64,000 bases of DNA. Source: Chloroflexota bacterium (GTDB lineage: Bacteria > Chloroflexota > Anaerolineae > Aggregatilineales > Ch27). This document shows, one piece after another, positions 21,536 through 32,199 of this stretch. A program made the translations under genes and the position numbers. The notes beneath the pieces were generated by a model that worked only from the letters and a program-made list of their open reading frames with translations, made no database searches and had not been told where the DNA came from. Positions within the stretch are counted from its first letter, which is position 1; each line of letters opens with the position of its first letter. Location of the stretch: NCBI GenBank assembly GCA_019873685.1, contig JAIOAT010000001.1:19405-83404 (forward strand), read 5' to 3'.

Positions 21536-21559
21536 AGGGGGCAGTACACACTGCCCCCT
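21536..21559. terminator. hairpin terminator between convergent MFS and giant gene
   Basis: AGGGGGCAGT-ACAC-ACTGCCCCCT perfect 10-bp stem; followed by TTCATTT on the minus strand. Confidence 0.75.
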
Positions 21560-21581
21560 GATGTGTGCTGTTCCGCCGTGC

Positions 21582-24500
21582 TCAGTACGTCATTGTCCGT
21601 ACCGGCTGCGCCCGGACGACCAGCCGTTCCGCGAAGACACCCCGGAAGGCATTCCAGGTGGTGCAGGTGATCAGCGTCAGCATTTGCTGCGCAGTCGGGT
21701 AGGTCACCTCGACATCATTGGCCGCAACAACATCGATGGCGCTGACCTGAAATTCGTAGATCGTGTTGCGATCGACCAGGAAGATCGAGTCGCCTACTTC
21801 CAGCAGGTCGAGGTCGCGGAACGGCCCCGGTACACCCTGCGTGATCTGGATGTGCCCGGCTAATACGGTGTTGCCACCGAATTCGCCAGCCGCTTCGTCA
21901 ACCCAGGTCGTGCCCTGAAGGAAGCCGATGTTCTGGCCCAGATCGCGTACGTCCCAGGTGCGATTGCGCAGCGGGATGTTCACGATAGGCACGGGGCTGC
22001 TCAACCCCAGCTTGGGGATGAACAACTCACGCTCCGTCTGCGGGCGGAAGGGCGGGGCAGTCGTTGGCTCCGGCGGGGAAGGCAGGGTGCTCTGCGCTGC
22101 CGGGATCGGGATAGCCGTTGGCGGCAGAGTCGTTACCGTGGGCGGCGGGGTGAACGCAGGCGGCAGGGTGGGATGTTGCGGGACGCCTTCGACCATTTCG
22201 GCTGGCGTGGCGGAAGCCTCCGCCTGAAGACCCTCGCCGCCGGATCCCCCGACCAGGGCGATGACGATGACGATCACCGCCAGCACAATCGCGCCGATGG
22301 CGACCAGAGTCAGCAGTTGAACCCGGTGCGCCGGTGCGCCCAGGGTCATGCCGAGCAACCCCAGCGTCAGCAGGGTGATGACACCGGCAATGGCGGCAAC
22401 GATGGCCGTGTCGCCATCGCCAGAGGCTGCAGCCTGGCCAGTGGCAGGCAGCAGCGCGGCATCCGGGGCGATGCGCACCGCAGCAGTATCGCAGATCGAG
22501 GCGCTGCCACCTACAGAGGTTGCACAGCCCACATTCTGCAGGATAGCCCCAGCGATCACCCCTTCATTGACACGGGCGACAATAGTCAGTGTGGCCGCGT
22601 CGTTGAAGTTCAGGGTGTTGGTGACCGCGACAACGGTGTTGCCCTCGCGCTCAATCGTACCATTGCTGATTGTCACGCTCTCCACCTGCATCTTGATGTC
22701 GAGCGTATCGGTGAGGATCACCCCGGCCAGTGGTTCTGTGCCCGGATTGCGCACGGTGAGCGTCCAGGTGACCAGTCCGCCCGGAGCGGCGAAAGGCTGC
22801 AGGACCTCTTTGTTCACCTGTGGATCAGCCACACCGGGGACTGGCGTCCCGATGATGTAGGGATTGCCGGACGGATCAGTGGTGATCAGAGCAATGGTGA
22901 CCGTTGTCTCCGCGCTGACTGGCAACGTGGCAGTACCGACGAAGCCTTCGCCGGATACGATGACGCGGATAGTCAGCGGGTTAGGATCGCCGGTGGTGGG
23001 GATGTAGCTGAAGATGCCGGAGGTGGCGACTCCTGGCGGGAGCGTTGTCGTGCCCAGGACGATCGCGCCGCCCTGGGTTGCCGGGCGAGGCAGCCCGCCC
23101 GCGGCGAATGACCTGTCCACGACAAACGAACCGCGCAGATTATTGATCGGGCCGTCGCCGACGTTCAGGACGCTCACGGTGTAGTCCACACGCTCGCCGA
23201 GCGTGGCCACCGTCTTGTTGGCCACAGCCCGGATATAGAGCTGCGGGCGTAGCACATTGAGCACATAGGTGTCATTGTCGGCGACTGAACGGTTGAACGA
23301 AGTCAGGCCGCTGGCCGTTACCGTGCTCACCAGCGGGTCGGGCGTGTTAGTGCCGACCGTGTAGGTGTAAGAGACCGATGTGCGCTGACCGGGCGCCAGT
23401 GAACGCACCGGCAGGCGGCTGGTCAATGCGCCGGCGAGGCTATCGACCAGCGCCAGGTCCGTCAGCGGCTCATTGCCGGAATTGCGGATTTCCGCGGTGT
23501 AGGTAACGATCTCGCCGGGAGCCGCGCCTTCCCTGTTCGCGCTCAGACTCACGTCGATCCGCGGGGCAGCGGTGTCCAGCAGATACGTGTAGCTCCGACT
23601 GATCGTCGTGCCGATCGGGTCGATGCCCTGGGCCTGCAGGGTCAGGTTCACCGGGTCCGGAGCGTTCAGCGGCACGATGTAAACGAACTCGATCGTGACG
23701 CGCTGGCCCGGCGTCAGAATCAGGCCGCTAATGGGATCGGTGGTCTGGATCGGGACGTTAGCCGACAGAGATACGTTGGTCAGGGTAGTCGCCCCATCGT
23801 TGCGGAGGTTGGCAGCGAACATGATGGAGTCCCCGGCGACCCCGATGCAAGGCGTTGGGCAGTTGAGCGGCGTGGCGCTGAGACTCATCGACGAGAGGGT
23901 GATGGTGACGGCGACAGAGCCGGTATCGGATACTGTGCCGACCGTCGGGCCGGTGCCCTGGGCGATGACCGAAGCCACCAGAGGCGAAGAATCGGAGAGC
24001 AGGACGTTGTAGCTGAACATTGCGACGACACTGCCACCGGGGGGCAGGGTCGTTGTGGTGAACTGACCAGTGAGATCGAGGGCACTGCCGTCAGGCAGCG
24101 TGGCCAGCGCTGAGACGCTGGAAAGCGCCTCCCCGCCGATGTTGGTCACAGTGGCCAGGTAGTTCACACTCTGACCGGCCAGGACAGTTGTCCGATCAGC
24201 GCTGACCGTGACGCGGATAGCCGCGTTGTTCAGGATGGCAACCGTGGCCGAGGAGGTGTCGCTCACTGTGATGCCGAAGCCGTCCCGCCCGACTACCTGA
24301 ACCGTATTGACCAGCGGGTCGGGGTCGAGAGCGGCATTCACCCGGCGTGTGTAGGTCGTGGTGATGTGTTCGCCGATTGCCAGGGTGTATTTGGGCAGGG
24401 TGATGGAGGGCACCAGGGTGTCGGTCACCGTCAGGCCGGTGACCGGGGTGGTGCTGGTATTGGTGATGTCGAGGGTGTAGGTCACCAGGTCGCCGTCAAA

Positions 24501-27500
24501 GGCGGCAGCGCGATCCGCCGACTTGACCACATTGAGGCCGCTGCCAGCGACGATCACCTGAGCCCGGGCGGTATCGGCGACCATGATCGGGTTAGATGGG
24601 TCTGGCGGGTTGAAGACCGCAGCCGTCACGGCAGCTGTGTTGGTGGCCGGATCGCCGTCTCCAGAGGTCAGGATACGGCGAATGGTCGCGCTGGCGCTGG
24701 CGCCCGGCGCGAGCGGCAGCGGGGATGCGCCGGGCGGCGTGCAGATCGGCGCCGGGTTTGGCAGGGCAACGCCTGGATCGAAGCAGCCAGTGATATCGCC
24801 GCCGAGGAGCGGATCGATAACCGCAAAGGCGGTGATGTTTTCCGCGCCGGTATTGGTCACGGTCAGCGTATAGGCGATCTCAGTGCCGACACTGGCTACC
24901 GCCGGGGTGGCGGACTTGGTCAGGCGAATTCCCGGTGACACGATGTCCACACTCGCCGAAGCGGTATCCGTCAGCGTGAGCGGGCCAGGCGCGATCGCTG
25001 TGACCGTGACCGTGCTCACAAAGGGATCGCTGTCCAGGCCGGTGACCATGTGCGTGTAGGAGCCGGTGGTGCTCTGGCCAGGGTTCAGCGTATCAGTGCC
25101 CAGGGCGATCGCGCCGCCGGCGTCGGGACTGGTCGCACGGACGTTGTTGAGCGTGCGCAGGCCGGTATTGCGTACCGTGACCGTGTAAGTGATTGTCTCG
25201 CCGATGGCGGCGCTGGGCCGATCGGCGACGTTGGTGACGAACAGATCGCCGCTGGCGATAGGGATGCTGGCGGAAGCCGTGTCGGTCAGGAAGCTGACGC
25301 CGCCCAGCAGGCCGGTAGCTACGACGGTATTGACCAGTGGATCGGGCGTGGTTGCCGTGACCGGGATTTCGATGCAGGTTTCAGCGGAGCCAAACCCGCC
25401 CAGTGTCGGGGTGAGTGGCGGTATGACGCCGGGCAGCAGACGAGCGGTGATGTCCTGACCGCTGGTGGTATCGACCACGCTGATGTTGGTGATGGGGGTA
25501 GCGCCCAGATTCTCGATCCGCACCCGGTAGGCGACGACATCGCCAATCCGGGCGAACGGCCTGACAACCGGCGCGGCGCAGCCGCCAATCCCGGCGATGG
25601 TCTTGCTCACCACCAGGTCGGAGGAGGCAATCTGGACGGAGACGCTGTCTGTATCCTGGATCGTTGTGCCATTGGCTGTCCGCGCTGTGGCCAGGGCGGT
25701 GTTGATCAAGGGGTCGGGATCGCTGGCCCGGACTGTGCGGGTCAGGATGCCAGTCGCTTCCTGGCCTGGTTCGAGGACACCCGGATCGCCGGGGAAAGTC
25801 AGGTCAACGTTGCCGCCGGTGCAGCCGCTATCAGCCGTGCCGCACAGTGGATCGCTGAGCACGACATTGGTCAGGGTCGAGGTGCCTTCGTTGCGGATCA
25901 GGAAGCCATAGGTGACAGCCTCCCCGATCAGGGCGATACCGGTGGAGGCGGTCTTGGTCAGGCTCAGGTCAGCTTCGCGGATATCGACCAGGGCCAGACC
26001 GCTGGACGAGATCGTGACGCCAGAACTGGCGCGCCCGGTGGCAGTGACGCGGTTGACCAGCGGATCCGGTGCGCCCGGCGGGATAGTGTAGTCAAAGGCG
26101 CCAACAGCCCTGCCGTCTGGCGCAAGCGTGTCGATGATGGCTCCAGTGACTGGATCACGGAGCGGGATCGGCAACCCAGAGAGGTGATCGATGACGGAGA
26201 TGGCGGTCAGCGGTTGACCACTGGTATTGGTCACCTCGATATCGTAGGTCACCGTGTCGCCGATCACGACGGACGTTGTGCGCGGCGTCTTGGTGACAGT
26301 GATTCCCAGGTCGCGGATGTCGATTGTCGCTGCCGCGCCGTCGGTGATGCCCTGGTCATTCGTCACGGTGACGGTGTTGACAAACGGGTTGGGGGTGCTG
26401 GCGGTGACGGTGTAGGCGATGACGCCGATGGCCCGCTGATTGGGGGCCAGGGCGGGAATAGTGGTCGTGAGCGGCCCGCCTTCCACACTCATCTGAATAG
26501 GGGTCCCCAGTTCGTTGTCGATAACCCGCACATTGGTCAGGTCAGAATCGCCAAGGTTGACCAGTTCCACCGTATAGAGCACGGTATCGCCAATAGCTGC
26601 CCCGGCGCGGTCGGCGGTCTTGGTGAGCTGAATACCGGGCGTCAGGATGTTCACCGCGATGGTATCGGCGCCCTCGATGGGGTTGCCCTGTCCATCGACG
26701 CCGGTTGCGATGGCCTCGTTGACGAACGGATCGGGGAGATCAGCTGTGACTTCAACTTCGTAAGTCAGGAAAGCGACCTCGAAGGGGTCAAGGGCGTCGA
26801 TCGGGGCAATGGTCAGCGGCGTTCTGACCGTGCAGTTAACCGTGTAGGATCGACCGCCGTAGGTGACTGACCCACCGCAGACGTTCGGGTTGGCGGCGGT
26901 GTTCAGCCCGATGGCAGCGTCGACGACCTGGATGTTGCGGATGGGAATCTGGCCGATGTTGGTGATGGCGATGTTATAGGTGATGCGCTCGCCTACCTGC
27001 ACTGTGGCCGGTGAAGCCTGTTTCTGTACGAGAAGCTGCGACGCGGTGATCAACACGGTGGTGTAGGTGCTGTCCGTCAGTAAGTTGTTCCCGGCGACGG
27101 TGGTGCCGCTGGCGGTAACCATGTTGATCAGCGGGCTGGGATCAGCCTGGGAGAGGGTGTAGGAGATGGTGGCCGTGGTTGATTCATTGTTGTTCAGCAC
27201 ACCGGGAATACCACCGGGGAACTGCAGCGGAACAGGGCCGGTCAGCGAGTCGTAGGCGGTCACGCCGGTCATGGTGGAGTCGCTGGCGTTGGTTACCGTG
27301 ATGGTGTAGCGAATGGTATCGCCCACGAAGGCCACATTCGGCACAGCTACCTTGCTGACGCGGAAGCGCGGGTCGATCACGTCGACGATGAACTCCGCCT
27401 CCGCTGCCACCTCAGTGCCGCCCAGCGTTTCGCCTTCCACACGCAGCGTGTTGACGAAGGGGTCAGGGTCAAGATCAGTGATGATGTCCTGCCAGGTGCA

Positions 27501-30500
27501 GACAATGTCGACCGCACCGACTGGCAGCGTAGTCGGGCAATCTGAGTCAGTGGCGAAATTGATGCCGGTGGCATCGCTGTAGGTCAGGTTGGTCAGGTCG
27601 CTCGTACCGTTGTTGGAAAGCCGGGCGCTCCAGGTGACCAGGGTGTTGCGCTCTGCTGTGTCGGTGCTGCCCAGCAGAACAACCTCGAGGATGGGATCGT
27701 CCAGGTCAATTGACGCGGTACCCAGCGTGCTGAGGTTGTAGCGGTTAGTGTCGATGATCAGCTCACCGGTGGCATTGACCGTGTTAACGAACGGGTCCGA
27801 GGCTGTCTGAGGAACGGTCAGGGTGACCGTGCCTGCCGCCGATTCGCCAGGGTTAAGCGTCCGCGGACGGTTGACCGGGTCAGGGAAGGTCATGGCAACT
27901 TCGCCCGTTTGTGCATCGATCACGCTGATGTTGGTGATCACGTTGGACGATGCCAGCGGACTGGTGTTGGTCACCGTGATCGCATACGTGACCGAATCGC
28001 CGCGGCTGGCCTGGGGCGGGCCGATCTTGACGACCTGCAAGGGGTTGCGGATCTGTACCTCTGCCGACTGTGTGGAGAGGATGGTCACACCCGGTTCACG
28101 GGAGTCGGTCGTGGTTGTCCCGCGCACGGTGACGGTGTTAACCAGTTTGTTCGAGGTCAAGTCAGCGGGGCGGACGGTGTAGTTGTTCGCCGTCGGGTTG
28201 CTTTCCAGGTAGGAAGCGTCGCAGATCGGGAACAGGCAGGGGTAATCCCGCGCGGCGGGCAACGTCTTGGGTGTGGTGTCATACGGTGTGCCGGGATTGA
28301 CCGCCGGGTTGTCGATGCGGCGGTTGGCGATCGGGCCAAGACGATCATCGACAACCGTGACCTGGTTCATGGCTATCTGGCTGACGTTGTACACCAGGTA
28401 GTCATAGTGGATGGTTTCGCCGACCACAGCGAAGGAGCGATTGGGAATCTTGAGAATCAGAAACGGGCTGTAGATCTCCACGCTGTGGGTATCGGAGAAT
28501 GTCAGAGTGTCGACGCCGTTGGTCATCACCACCTGGAAGGTGTTGATCAGTTCGTCCGGGTCGCGTGGCCCCACTTCGTAGGTGTACTCAATTGAGGTGC
28601 TCTCGCCAGGAGTCAACGCCGGGTTGGTGGGATCGGCGCTGTTGGCGATCAGCGTTGCAGTGCTGAGCGTGCGCTCGGTCTCATAGGCGCTGTTGGAAAC
28701 ATCTCTGGCGCTGATGAACGAATAGGACACGTCGGAGACATTGGTTAGCGTGACCCGGTAGCGGATGACATCGCCAACTACCGCAAAGCCGAAGAACGGT
28801 TCGATATTGGTCTTTTGAACCAGGATCGGCGAGGTTACTTCTACCCGCCAGGTATCCTGGGCGGTCACAATCTGGCCGTTGACGACACCGCGGGCGGTGG
28901 CCGTATTGGTGATCGCGGGGAGGTCGTCAGCGGTAACCCGGTGCTGGGTGGCCCCGGTGCAGGCTGGTGCGGTCTGGCTGAGTGTCGCCACGTTGCCGGG
29001 AGGCAGGGAGAATGCCGGGAAGGCGGCGCTCAGATCGCCCAGCGCCGTGTCGCTGACGGTAATATCTGTGATGGTGCTCAGGTTGCTGATGTTGCTGACG
29101 GTGAAGGTGTAGGTGACGCATTGCCCATCAGTGGCGATGATGCGATCGGCCACCTTATCGATGACCAGCGGGTTGACCAGCTGGATGTTCCACTCGTCGG
29201 CATCGCCGACAGGCTGTAGCGTCGGCTGCAGCGTGCCGGAAACCGTGACCCGGTTCTTGAGGATACGATCCTGCCGGCTCAGATCAGCGGTGAGGACGGT
29301 ATAGTTGAAGGTGCCGTAGGCCATCCCACCGGGTTGCAGGCTGGGGATCACCGACACAAAGGGGCCGGTGGTGGTCTCTGTGACGGGATCGTAGGGCGCC
29401 AGCAGGACCGTGCTGCCGCTGCAGCCACTCAGACCCGTAGCGCACAGGGTATCGACAGCGCTGACGTTGGTGATCTCATTTTCCTGGATGTTGGTCACGA
29501 AGAATTCGTAGGTGACCGTATCTCCCACTGCGGCGCGGGTGACGTTGGCTTCTTTTTGGATGCGCAGCTGCGCTGGCAGCACATCGATCGTCCTGGTGGC
29601 GAAGAAGCTGCGCCGCGTACCCTTGTCATCGGTACCCTGAATGCGCACCAGCACGGTTAGCGGGTCGGGGTCGTCGCTCTGGACAGGCCGGTTGAAGCTA
29701 CCGGTGGCCAGCTCAAACGGGGCCAGGTCGCCAGGAGCCAGGGAAGGCGCGCTCTGGCCCGGGAACTGCAGCGGGAACTGCTGTTCCGGCTGGGCCAGCC
29801 CCACAACCTGGTAGAAGCCGGTGATGTCCGTCAGGGTGATGCGTCCGTTGTTGGAGACGAAGACGTTATAAGTGACCGGAAGCCCTGGTAGTTGCTCACT
29901 GGGTGGGTTGGAAGTCACCGTGATGAACAACTGCGCATTGCTGATTTCGACGACTTCAGAGGTGGAATCGGTGATGCCGCCTTCAGCCGTGACCGTGGCG
30001 ACGTTGATCAGCGGGCTGGGGTCGCTGCCGCTGATGGTGTACTGCTCGGTGAAAGTGTATGGTGTTGCCGGGTCGAGCAGCAAGCCTCCAGCGGGGATGT
30101 TGCCGATTGCGCCGAGTAGCGTGTCGGTGATGGAAAGCACTCGCAGGGGGGCGCTGGTCAGGTTGCTGACGGTAAAGGTGTAGGTGATTGTGTCGCCGCG
30201 CAGGGCGGTTTCGCGGTCGGCGCTGGCTTCGATCCGGATCTGGTTGTCCAGAATGTCAACCAGCACCGAAGCAGTGTCGGCAATGGTCGAGCCGCTGTTG
30301 GTGATGGCGGATGCTCTGGCTGTGGTGAGCGGAGTGAAGCCAAACGGGTCAGGTTCGGTGCCCTGAATGGTGTAGGTAAACGTGCCGCTGACCGTCGCTC
30401 CCGGTAGCAGGCTGGTGCTGGGCGCGGGAGGGGTGCCGAGTAGAACCCGCGTGCCGGAACACCCCGTGCCTGCCCCAGGTTCCGCGCAGAGGGGGAACTC

Positions 30501-31934
30501 CACCCGGACGTTCACCAGCCCTTCCGTGCTGGTGTTGGTGACCTGGAAGGTGTAAGTCAGCACCTCGCCGACGGCGACTGCCGCCGGTGCGGCGCTAATC
30601 GTGAGTTGCAGGGCCGGGTTGCGCTTGTCGACGCTTTCCGTCCAGTTGCTACTCACAGTCGCGCCCTGCGGGGAGATGCCGATTCCGGTCAGGATATTGA
30701 CCAGCGGATCGGGGTCGCCCTCCTGAACGATGTAGGCCACATTTTCCTGGTAGGATGCGCCGGGGGCCAGCGTCTTGGGTACGTTGACCAGCAGGCCGGT
30801 CAGCGAATCGACGACTGTCACGCTGTTGAGGGGGGTATCGCCGTCATTTTCCACCCGCACCGTGTAGGTAATGGTATCGCCAATGGCTGCCTGATCGACA
30901 TCGGCCAGTTTGCTGACCCGGATGGAAGGCACCGCGCGGGCTACGGACGTGCCGGTCACGGTAAAGGGGAGCTGGATGCCTGCTGCTGTAGCCAGGACGG
31001 TGACCTCATTGACCACCGGATCCGGGTAGGCAGGCAACATGTTGCAGGAAAAGGTCATGCTGAGCGAAGACCCGGCAGAGGCTGGCAGGGTACTGGTACC
31101 CGCCTGCGCCTGAAGAATCTGCTCCAGGGTAGGCGGGCTGGGCGCCGGCGTACATGTCCCGTAGGCGCTGCCCTCCAGGAACAGATCGCTGATTGAGTCG
31201 ATAGTTGTTGTCAGGGGCCGGTTGTTGCGCAGGGTCAGCGTCCAGGTCACCGGCGCCCCGACTTCGATTGCCGCTGGAGCCGTCAGACTGAGGGTGATGC
31301 TGGGACCTTCCACGCGGAACTCGGTATTGATGCCAGGATCGGAGGCCCGATCAATGTCGCAGCGGCCTACCGCCCCCATGTATCCCCAGCCGAAGAATGT
31401 GTAGTTGACCAGCGTCGGGTCGGTTGGCTGAGCCACATAATCAATGTGGCCGGTGATACGCTCTCCGGGGGATAACACGCCGTCAAAGGGTTCCACATCC
31501 CAGACGGGCTGCAGGCGTGGACCGTGAGTCATGACAATCTCACCCCAGACCCCCGTCAGATCGCCGCTGGCGCGATCGTTGCTGATGACCAGATTGAAGC
31601 GGATGGTCTCGCCTGGAATCAGGCGCAATAGCTCGCCATCTGGGTTGCCGTTGCTGCTACCGGGTGCGACAGTGCTCTCGCCGAAGATGGCGGAGTAGGT
31701 AGTGACGGTGGTCAGGCCGACGCCAATGCTGCCATCCGGGTCAAAACCGTCGGTTCCGCAGAAGCCCGGCGTTGTTGTCTGCCCGTCGGGACGGCTGGCA
31801 GGGACAGGCGCGGGTGGCAGTTCCGCGGCAGCTTCGACAGCGGGCAGAGGAGGCAGTAACAGGCTGGATGAATTGAGGATGATGGCCAGGACATAAACGA
31901 TCGTCAGGACGCGCAACAGCCGCTTTGAACCCAT
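21582..31934 (-). CDS. 3450-aa surface protein: signal peptide, about 25 DUF11/Ig-like repeats, LPATG, 2 TM helices, Pro/Thr linker, C-terminal sortase domain
   Basis: ATG 31934 follows an AGGGGG RBS; signal peptide MGSKRLLRVLTIVYVLAIIL; repeated K.A....A.vGd.itY...v.N units; LPATG at 22437-22451; sortase motifs L.IPKLG, NTVLAGH (His 21852-54), LTLITC (Cys 21663-65) and ERLVVRA (Arg). Confidence 0.93.
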   Translation of the reverse strand: MGSKRLLRVLTIVYVLAIILNSSSLLLPPLPAVEAAAELPPAPVPASRPDGQTTTPGFCGTDGFDPDGSIGVGLTTVTTYSAIFGESTVAPGSSNGNPDGELLRLIPGETIRFNLVISNDRASGDLTGVWGEIVMTHGPRLQPVWDVEPFDGVLSPGERITGHIDYVAQPTDPTLVNYTFFGWGYMGAVGRCDIDRASDPGINTEFRVEGPSITLSLTAPAAIEVGAPVTWTLTLRNNRPLTTTIDSISDLFLEGSAYGTCTPAPSPPTLEQILQAQAGTSTLPASAGSSLSMTFSCNMLPAYPDPVVNEVTVLATAAGIQLPFTVTGTSVARAVPSIRVSKLADVDQAAIGDTITYTVRVENDGDTPLNSVTVVDSLTGLLVNVPKTLAPGASYQENVAYIVQEGDPDPLVNILTGIGISPQGATVSSNWTESVDKRNPALQLTISAAPAAVAVGEVLTYTFQVTNTSTEGLVNVRVEFPLCAEPGAGTGCSGTRVLLGTPPAPSTSLLPGATVSGTFTYTIQGTEPDPFGFTPLTTARASAITNSGSTIADTASVLVDILDNQIRIEASADRETALRGDTITYTFTVSNLTSAPLRVLSITDTLLGAIGNIPAGGLLLDPATPYTFTEQYTISGSDPSPLINVATVTAEGGITDSTSEVVEISNAQLFITVTSNPPSEQLPGLPVTYNVFVSNNGRITLTDITGFYQVVGLAQPEQQFPLQFPGQSAPSLAPGDLAPFELATGSFNRPVQSDDPDPLTVLVRIQGTDDKGTRRSFFATRTIDVLPAQLRIQKEANVTRAAVGDTVTYEFFVTNIQENEITNVSAVDTLCATGLSGCSGSTVLLAPYDPVTETTTGPFVSVIPSLQPGGMAYGTFNYTVLTADLSRQDRILKNRVTVSGTLQPTLQPVGDADEWNIQLVNPLVIDKVADRIIATDGQCVTYTFTVSNISNLSTITDITVSDTALGDLSAAFPAFSLPPGNVATLSQTAPACTGATQHRVTADDLPAITNTATARGVVNGQIVTAQDTWRVEVTSPILVQKTNIEPFFGFAVVGDVIRYRVTLTNVSDVSYSFISARDVSNSAYETERTLSTATLIANSADPTNPALTPGESTSIEYTYEVGPRDPDELINTFQVVMTNGVDTLTFSDTHSVEIYSPFLILKIPNRSFAVVGETIHYDYLVYNVSQIAMNQVTVVDDRLGPIANRRIDNPAVNPGTPYDTTPKTLPAARDYPCLFPICDASYLESNPTANNYTVRPADLTSNKLVNTVTVRGTTTTDSREPGVTILSTQSAEVQIRNPLQVVKIGPPQASRGDSVTYAITVTNTSPLASSNVITNISVIDAQTGEVAMTFPDPVNRPRTLNPGESAAGTVTLTVPQTASDPFVNTVNATGELIIDTNRYNLSTLGTASIDLDDPILEVVLLGSTDTAERNTLVTWSARLSNNGTSDLTNLTYSDATGINFATDSDCPTTLPVGAVDIVCTWQDIITDLDPDPFVNTLRVEGETLGGTEVAAEAEFIVDVIDPRFRVSKVAVPNVAFVGDTIRYTITVTNASDSTMTGVTAYDSLTGPVPLQFPGGIPGVLNNNESTTATISYTLSQADPSPLINMVTASGTTVAGNNLLTDSTYTTVLITASQLLVQKQASPATVQVGERITYNIAITNIGQIPIRNIQVVDAAIGLNTAANPNVCGGSVTYGGRSYTVNCTVRTPLTIAPIDALDPFEVAFLTYEVEVTADLPDPFVNEAIATGVDGQGNPIEGADTIAVNILTPGIQLTKTADRAGAAIGDTVLYTVELVNLGDSDLTNVRVIDNELGTPIQMSVEGGPLTTTIPALAPNQRAIGVIAYTVTASTPNPFVNTVTVTNDQGITDGAAATIDIRDLGITVTKTPRTTSVVIGDTVTYDIEVTNTSGQPLTAISVIDHLSGLPIPLRDPVTGAIIDTLAPDGRAVGAFDYTIPPGAPDPLVNRVTATGRASSGVTISSSGLALVDIREADLSLTKTASTGIALIGEAVTYGFLIRNEGTSTLTNVVLSDPLCGTADSGCTGGNVDLTFPGDPGVLEPGQEATGILTRTVRASDPDPLINTALATARTANGTTIQDTDSVSVQIASSDLVVSKTIAGIGGCAAPVVRPFARIGDVVAYRVRIENLGATPITNISVVDTTSGQDITARLLPGVIPPLTPTLGGFGSAETCIEIPVTATTPDPLVNTVVATGLLGGVSFLTDTASASIPIASGDLFVTNVADRPSAAIGETITYTVTVRNTGLRTLNNVRATSPDAGGAIALGTDTLNPGQSTTGSYTHMVTGLDSDPFVSTVTVTAIAPGPLTLTDTASASVDIVSPGIRLTKSATPAVASVGTEIAYTLTVTNTGAENITAFAVIDPLLGGDITGCFDPGVALPNPAPICTPPGASPLPLAPGASASATIRRILTSGDGDPATNTAAVTAAVFNPPDPSNPIMVADTARAQVIVAGSGLNVVKSADRAAAFDGDLVTYTLDITNTSTTPVTGLTVTDTLVPSITLPKYTLAIGEHITTTYTRRVNAALDPDPLVNTVQVVGRDGFGITVSDTSSATVAILNNAAIRVTVSADRTTVLAGQSVNYLATVTNIGGEALSSVSALATLPDGSALDLTGQFTTTTLPPGGSVVAMFSYNVLLSDSSPLVASVIAQGTGPTVGTVSDTGSVAVTITLSSMSLSATPLNCPTPCIGVAGDSIMFAANLRNDGATTLTNVSLSANVPIQTTDPISGLILTPGQRVTIEFVYIVPLNAPDPVNLTLQAQGIDPIGTTISRSYTYLLDTAAPRIDVSLSANREGAAPGEIVTYTAEIRNSGNEPLTDLALVDSLAGALTSRLPVRSLAPGQRTSVSYTYTVGTNTPDPLVSTVTASGLTSFNRSVADNDTYVLNVLRPQLYIRAVANKTVATLGERVDYTVSVLNVGDGPINNLRGSFVVDRSFAAGGLPRPATQGGAIVLGTTTLPPGVATSGIFSYIPTTGDPNPLTIRVIVSGEGFVGTATLPVSAETTVTIALITTDPSGNPYIIGTPVPGVADPQVNKEVLQPFAAPGGLVTWTLTVRNPGTEPLAGVILTDTLDIKMQVESVTISNGTIEREGNTVVAVTNTLNFNDAATLTIVARVNEGVIAGAILQNVGCATSVGGSASICDTAAVRIAPDAALLPATGQAAASGDGDTAIVAAIAGVITLLTLGLLGMTLGAPAHRVQLLTLVAIGAIVLAVIVIVIALVGGSGGEGLQAEASATPAEMVEGVPQHPTLPPAFTPPPTVTTLPPTAIPIPAAQSTLPSPPEPTTAPPFRPQTERELFIPKLGLSSPVPIVNIPLRNRTWDVRDLGQNIGFLQGTTWVDEAAGEFGGNTVLAGHIQITQGVPGPFRDLDLLEVGDSIFLVDRNTIYEFQVSAIDVVAANDVEVTYPTAQQMLTLITCTTWNAFRGVFAERLVVRAQPVRTMTY
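22480..31320 (-). repeat. tandem DUF11 (conserved repeat domain) / pilin-D2-like protein repeats, about 25 units
   Basis: I counted 25 units by eye from ITLSLTAP..VTWTLTLRN to VNKEV..VTWTLTVRN, plus a divergent N-terminal unit. The repeats are diverged at DNA level; boundaries are approximate. Confidence 0.85.
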
Positions 31935-32199
31935 GATAATCCCCCTGCAGGCAGGTGCGTCCGGCTCTATGGCATAACGCCGAGGCCGGATCCTGGCTGA
32001 CACCGTTCGGGTACCAGAGGATGAACACTGCCTATCATTATGGGGCGTCTTGAGCGCTCAGGGCAAGTGCCAGAATGTACTACCTGACGTAGCTTCGACT
32101 GAGCAGACGGGCGGCATGGCATCCTCGCCTGGCCTGGTCTGATCCGGTATACTCTGCGCCGAGATAATGAACAGCTTAACTGGACAGGATGGCTGGGCA

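Follow-up and report, generated by a model that had tools for sequence, protein, structure and literature searches.

Sortase substrate and sortase naturally joined in one giant adhesin-type protein of a hot-spring Anaerolineae bacterium

Sortases in their textbook form act in trans on separate, weakly bound substrates, and the recognition of LPXTG by Staphylococcus aureus SrtA has a Km in the millimolar range. Engineered sortase-LPXTG fusion purification tags cleave themselves intramolecularly, which means that the chemistry is feasible in one chain; those tags are man-made, soluble and enzyme-first, whereas the fusion described here is natural, membrane-embedded and substrate-first. It was found in a 64,000-nucleotide stretch of contig JAIOAT010000001.1 (the window) from a hot-spring Anaerolineae bacterium, in which a minus-strand gene at 21582..31934 encodes a giant exported protein with an LPATG motif, two transmembrane helices (TM1 and TM2), a flexible linker and a C-terminal sortase domain. 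We conclude from the sequence and its comparison with homologues that this gene naturally joins a sortase substrate to a sortase. In the full-text literature, a coverage that has most subscription journals outside it, no published description of a natural substrate-sortase fusion was found.

The giant protein shares several features with canonical sorting, as known from S. aureus SrtA and classes A-F: the enzyme fold and its His-Cys-Arg triad, the succession of LPXTG and hydrophobic stop-transfer segment, and an enzyme anchored in type-II fashion by a helix and a flexible linker. It differs in that enzyme and substrate are one polypeptide, made one-to-one, in that a 5-residue loop into the sortase's own anchor helix replaces the charged C-terminal tail, and in that the fused enzyme falls below all NCBIfam class A-F thresholds. 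The nearest precedent in layout is that of the streptococcal IgA1/Zmp proteases, which have an internal LPXTG, a two-helix hairpin and an extracellular metalloprotease, the motif being cut by a separate sortase (PMC3518915). These proteases also join an internal LPXTG, two membrane segments and an extracellular enzyme in one chain; however, their motif lies near the N-terminus of a metalloprotease, whereas here a sortase itself lies downstream and a large passenger upstream, and no metalloprotease domain was found in the giant protein with Pfam. The passenger is similar to the CLIPPER (DUF11)/CLIPPER_2 (DUF7507) fibrillar adhesins, in which a signal peptide precedes a tandem series of CnaA-like stalk domains, often with isopeptide bonds (PMC12617251). 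The survey of these adhesins confined its search for sortase motifs to the C-terminal 50 residues (PMC12617251), and it would miss such fusions, whose motif lies ~290 residues before the C-terminus with a sortase after it. With the autotransporters (type V) there is a functional analogy only, in that passenger and surface-placing device are one polypeptide, later separated by cleavage (a proposed step in our case), whereas their machinery, an outer-membrane beta-barrel, and their chemistry are unrelated.

The uninterrupted open reading frame on the minus strand extends over 21582..32003 and has 3473 codons when counted from a GTG at 32003. Ten orthologues, with 47-94% identity to the window protein, match it over the whole length beginning at residue 24 of this frame. 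This places the true start at the ATG at 31934, which is also the start in the orthologues and yields 3450 codons plus stop, the product length given in the preliminary description of this locus. Residue numbers below are counted from the GTG, and those of the real protein are obtained by subtracting 23 (for example, Cys3447 = Cys3424).

The LPATG sortase recognition motif (22437..22451, minus strand, residues 3185-3189) is the sole LPxTG in the giant protein, where composition predicts 0.26, and it is located 289 residues from the C-terminus. TM1, AIVAAIAGVITLLTLGLLGMTLG (22338..22406, minus strand), begins 10 residues past the motif, and it is followed by the predicted cytoplasmic loop APAHR (22323..22337, minus strand, 5 residues between the helices) and by TM2, VQLLTLVAIGAIVLAVIVIVIALVG (22248..22322, minus strand), which would lead the chain back outside and is the counterpart of the N-terminal anchor helix of a free-standing sortase. 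A flexible Pro/Thr/Ala-rich linker of 72 residues (22032..22247, minus strand) then leads to the sortase; its predicted local distance difference test (pLDDT) values in the AlphaFold2 model are mostly below 55. TM1 and TM2 are strongly hydrophobic (window-averaged Kyte-Doolittle 2.4 and 3.5), and AlphaFold2 modelled them as two helices with a 5-residue turn (pLDDT 65-82 by block). All these elements were located as they had been described at the outset. Two of the three features of a classical sorting signal are present, the LPXTG pentapeptide and the hydrophobic segment soon downstream of it; the third, a terminal charged tail, is absent, and its place is taken by APAHR, then TM2 and 221 residues. 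No Gram_pos_anchor or LPXTG-anchor model was among the Pfam and NCBIfam matches of the giant protein.

Because TM1 is preceded by ~3,100 already exported residues, it must be a stop-transfer segment, and TM2 must re-export the chain. The loop of distant homologues is RRR, QRR or NRR, which agrees with the positive-inside rule. A profile search over 1.84 billion representative proteins gave 17,325 matches at E up to 0.001; the top 150 of these were inspected, with helices counted by hydropathy and reading by eye. Proteins with a motif upstream of the sortase had an even number of helices between the two (mostly 2; otherwise 4 or 0), and almost all stand-alone sortases of 200-300 aa had one helix in this crude count. 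Since the helix number between motif and enzyme is even, both should lie on the same outer face. The preliminary description had proposed exactly this same-face topology, and it is borne out by the strong transmembrane segments, the modelled hairpin and the family-wide even helix count; nothing placed the sortase in the cytoplasm.

The sortase catalytic domain (21585..22031, minus strand) contains the catalytic His3384 at 21852-21854 in LAGH, Cys3447 at 21663-21665 in TLITC and Arg3460 at 21624-21626 in AERL. PF04203 matched residues 3329-3468 of the whole protein with 73 bits (cut-off 26.6) and the tail alone with 76.9 bits, and the generic NCBIfam sortase model TIGR01076 scored 40.3, just above its cut-off of 39.35. 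None of the NCBIfam class A-F models reached its cut-off (class D 38/165, class E 37/160, class C 33.8/160, GN 'marine' 34/158). In the AlphaFold2 model the domain has a confident fold (pLDDT ~90), that of the eight-stranded beta-barrel of sortases, and Foldseek matched it with class A, E and C sortase structures (E ~1e-9, TM-score up to 0.80 on target). Judged by profile, triad and predicted fold, the fused enzyme is a member of the sortase family outside all curated classes, and the intact domain with its His, Cys and Arg that had been read from the sequence is thus present.

Motif and enzyme are conserved together. A protein search seeded with the tail found 28 giant homologues of 2,000-4,400 aa from independent assemblies, and all 28 carried PF04203, DUF11 and DUF7507. 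Among 61 genomes sampled from the order of the bacterium, the family of the window protein had an orthologue with a full-tail match in 8 of the 9 other genomes, six of them with open frames of 3,413-3,498 aa, and a second family had frames of 3,926-3,968 aa. In much of the family the 10-kb frame has stayed open at identities of 47-61%, so strong purifying selection must act on it. Two further genomes of this order, G176 (C3) and G200 (C1), have giant sortase-ending frames of 3,687 and 3,799 aa with one in-frame TAA each; these may be pseudogenes, errors or cases of read-through.

In all 25 aligned tails, which are 31-87% identical to that of the window protein, the motif keeps its L, P, T and G and the sortase its catalytic His, Cys and Arg without exception, and the spacer, loop and linker vary freely. 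Judged from this alignment, the LPxTG motif is under selection; its loss in homologues, which the preliminary description had named as a reason to abandon the idea, is not seen down to 31% identity. The X position of the motif differs by clade (A, V, E, D, S, T, G, L), and NPATG, LPAAG or LPPAG stands in its place in a small number of homologues. In a scan of one genome per species, which returned 202 relatives, LPxTG, helices and sortase lay in one open frame at 47 of the best 80 loci, with passengers of ~250 to >4,000 residues. These 47 fused loci come from Anaerolineae, Aggregatilineales, Thermoflexus and other Chloroflexota metagenome-assembled genomes. The survey for co-conservation that had been suggested thus gave a positive answer, and the possibility that sortase-tailed large proteins exist in other Chloroflexota was confirmed for many of them.

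On a tree of 168 sortase domains, the enzyme of the window falls in a clade of 60 rows, 51 of them fused (SH-aLRT, the Shimodaira-Hasegawa-like approximate likelihood ratio test, 97), and at least 4 further fused clades are interspersed with stand-alone clades. Fused forms in several separate clades indicate that enzyme and motif were joined or kept together repeatedly; we speak of only 'several' origins or retentions because fragmentary sequences and miscalled starts make state changes look more numerous than they are. One fused clade (P0028, P0094, P0158) has four helices, with LPETG or LAGTG upstream of the sortase. The passenger domains of P0028 are quite different, with PF17802, PF13620 and others. 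Another clade, separate and well supported (P0029, P0068, P0151, P0162, P0142), is helix-free and has a conserved (L)PxTGFxPxxxTxL ~25 residues upstream of the sortase, at the end of secreted proteins of 1,000-2,000 aa. P0068 (1048 aa) has two tandem sortase domains, with LPRTGFAPG before the first and an LPKMGY segment before the second, and looks from its sequence as if two motif-plus-enzyme units had been chained. Split ancestors, in which a substrate gene would lie directly upstream of a free sortase, were sought and none were found; the free sortases of Chloroflexales sit after unrelated genes.

The protein begins, as had been noted, with a signal peptide, MGSKRLLRVLTIVYVLAIILNSSSLLLPPLPAVEA (31830..31934, minus strand); it has an end of A-x-A type, and an N-terminal hydrophobic segment was seen by hydropathy in most full-length homologues. 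The passenger (22452..31829, minus strand) consists of ~280 residues without a significant Pfam match, followed by ~30 Ig-like repeats of the CLIPPER (DUF11), CLIPPER_2 (DUF7507), DUF7927 and CARDB families. Pfam identified 18 DUF7507 and 12 DUF11 stretches in addition to DUF7927 and CARDB, so that the ~25 Ig-like repeats first counted become ~30 repeats of CLIPPER type; no significant Pfam family matched the N-terminal tip of ~280 residues. Fibrillar adhesins of this kind are recognized by a signal peptide followed by DUF11 and DUF7507 repeats in tandem, and by its sequence the passenger is a stalk of this type (CLIPPER/CLIPPER_2). A crude pattern scan found an N-terminal Lys and a C-terminal ...DP.P(L/F)(V/I)N in about half of the repeat segments split out, and this pattern of repeat Lys and ...P(L/F)(V/I)N fits the Lys-Asp-Asn isopeptide triad of CLIPPER domains.

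The architecture, the topology and the co-conservation of motif and enzyme are established on these data, and the chemistry proposed here is taken from that of known sortases. The best-supported reading is self-sorting, in which the sortase of the protein probably cleaves LPAT|G, either in cis or in a neighbouring copy, and passes the fibre to the wall. Judged by sequence and comparison, the Sec signal peptide exports the ~3,100-residue fibre of CLIPPER repeats; TM1 halts transfer 10 residues past LPATG, the 5-residue loop remains cytoplasmic and TM2 leads back across the membrane, so that the 72-residue Pro-rich tether keeps the His-Cys-Arg sortase on the outer face, where LPATG also lies. 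The sortase Cys would then attack the Thr-Gly bond of its own or a neighbour's LPATG, giving a fibre-LPAT-thioester, which a wall-precursor amine would resolve to leave the fibre covalently wall-anchored, or which water would resolve instead to release it. The cell makes peptidoglycan, as indicated by eight penicillin-binding-protein genes. The remnant, from the G through TM1, loop, TM2 and linker to the sortase, would be a membrane sortase with two helices, free to process further copies or a separate LPATG protein encoded on contig C42 of the same genome. Because sortases bind LPXTG weakly, tethering would raise the local concentration, with one enzyme per giant fibre.

A narrower version of self-sorting can be formulated, in which LPxTG, hairpin, linker and sortase form an obligate in-cis, essentially single-turnover self-anchoring device, each fibre being cut and wall-linked only by its own sortase; such a device would represent a distinct, as yet undescribed sortase system, gained or retained on several occasions in versions with 0, 2 or 4 helices and used by many secreted Chloroflexota proteins. 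We regard this narrower version as tentative, possible rather than probable.

Several results weigh against self-sorting or leave it less well defined. The preliminary description had looked to a structural model for contact between LPATG and the active site; in the AlphaFold2 model of the 301-residue tail the sortase and the hairpin are confident, but the LPATG segment has a pLDDT of 50-56 and is not confidently docked in the active site. In AlphaFold2 models of the helix-free variant tails (five sequences of P0029 type), the LPVTG block reaches only ~64, against 35-55 in its flanks, a modest rise that is at most suggestive. The linker geometry equals that of free sortases and does not separate cis from trans. 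In addition, the loop is weakly basic in the subclade of the window protein and acidic in P0008 within the 25-tail alignment; the positive-inside support is small in this subclade and the topology therefore rests on helix parity and on the already exported passenger. Finally, the genome contains three free sortases and a classical LPATG substrate, and another sortase could cut the giant protein.

This last point leads to the alternative that survives best, trans processing, in which a separate sortase cuts LPATG and the fused one is only carried along and acts on other proteins. No other sortase lies in the window, as had been observed, and the whole genome has four sortase domains, namely the fusion and three free-standing enzymes on other contigs, each with one helix. 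One of these (C39:30735-31502, minus strand) has one helix after QRRRPRRIP, a Pro-rich linker and then the sortase, a layout equal to the post-loop part of the fusion (basic residues, helix, Pro-rich linker, sortase). It resembles the fused domain in its PGPF, LTLITC and RLVVVAEPV motifs, belongs to a neighbouring clade of 27 stand-alone sortases (SH-aLRT 82), and has C39-like counterparts in several relatives that carry the fusion. The classical substrate (C42:24267-26328, plus strand, 687 aa) consists of a signal peptide, a long stalk of Thr-Pro-Thr-Asn repeats, a single CLIPPER-like domain, LPATG, a helix and RRRWAGRRR; its motif is identical to that of the giant protein, and the last CLIPPER domains of the two are similar. 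A possible second substrate in the genome carries LPDSG. Under trans processing, an enzyme such as that of C39 would cut the giant protein and the fused sortase would serve proteins such as the 687-aa one, and the retained free sortases and the similar substrate speak for it. However, it leaves unexplained why several separate clades, with helix numbers of 0, 2 or 4, keep the motif and a matching enzyme in a single chain, and in the helix-free variants a membrane sortase would find no membrane-retained substrate. We consider trans processing rather unlikely.

A second alternative is that the fused enzyme acts as a class C-like polymerase, joining the LPAT end to a lysine of the next subunit, so that every subunit would supply a polymerase for a covalent fibre of great length. 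CnaA-like domains of pilin/adhesin type make up the passenger, the NCBIfam isopeptide fimbrial model reached a summed score of 59.8 bits on the giant protein, and class C structures are among the fold matches. However, the class C sortase model, whose cut-off is 160 bits, gave only 33.8, neither a pilin motif nor a conserved acceptor lysine was identified, lysine accounts for only 0.8% of the residues of the giant protein, and a subunit of 3,100 residues is already of fibre size, which together make polymerization improbable. Still less probable is a fate resembling one proposed for the Zmp proteins, whose TM2 was suggested to be a second signal peptide cut by signal peptidase (PMC3518915); such a cut would give a soluble sortase, whatever that sortase does. 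The Zmp proteins are a precedent for LPXTG with two helices (PMC3518915), and AEA and ASA occur ~11-14 residues past TM2 in the window protein, but these A-x-A sites are unconserved in homologues and distant from the hydrophobic core, and the free sortases of the family retain one uncleaved anchor helix. It is equally hard to credit that LPATG is an uncleaved relic in an integral membrane protein that shows both fibre and sortase, the sortase acting only on other proteins, because L, P, T and G are invariant in an otherwise unconserved segment in tails down to 31% identity and the motif occurs in almost every fused clade.

A missed frameshift, a lost stop codon or a chimeric assembly could also have fused two genes artificially. 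In a hot-spring run that holds the whole stretch, probably the source sample, a contig is identical to the window over 21579-23000. In an unrelated sludge metagenome, a 44-kb contig with ~97% identity spans the motif-sortase junction in frame; its only length difference within the gene is a 6-nt in-frame deletion at window position 22257, at the linker's Gly-rich beginning just past TM2, and its other indels are all downstream of the stop codon. Two loci are interrupted between motif and sortase, L027 by a stop and L047, which carries an 'MFD...' isolate label, by a frame change that may be an assembly error; both are taken to be broken copies of a fused gene because the upstream frame ends in LPTTG and the sortase lies within 100 bases. 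Given the identical source-run contig, the in-frame sludge contig and dozens of independent assemblies with the fusion, the chance of an artefact is negligible, and the independent contig, the frames of the family and the end-to-end orthologues dispose of the frameshift or assembly join that the preliminary description had kept in view.

If self-sorting holds, bacteria would also use tethered sortase chemistry with one enzyme per substrate, and sortase classification would be extended beyond classes A-F. Little work has been done on filamentous Anaerolineae, which abound in sludge, sediments and hot springs, and the anchoring of their fibres of >3,000 residues would be explained in this way. 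Ready-made self-processing sortase modules would also become available for protein engineering.

At the locus itself, RNA evidence was sought, and no RNA run containing the stretch was found. A sigma-70-like promoter match (32037..32066, minus strand), a weak consensus match only, lies ~100 nt upstream of the ATG, and a hairpin like that of an intrinsic terminator (21536..21559, minus strand) with 10 pairs, 7 of them G-C, and a T-rich tail begins 23 nt past the stop codon. The neighbouring genes have housekeeping functions (a major facilitator superfamily transporter, a tetrapyrrole methylase, a cobalamin adenosyltransferase and the shikimate pathway); since they are unrelated to it, the gene of the giant protein stands alone, without an operon partner.

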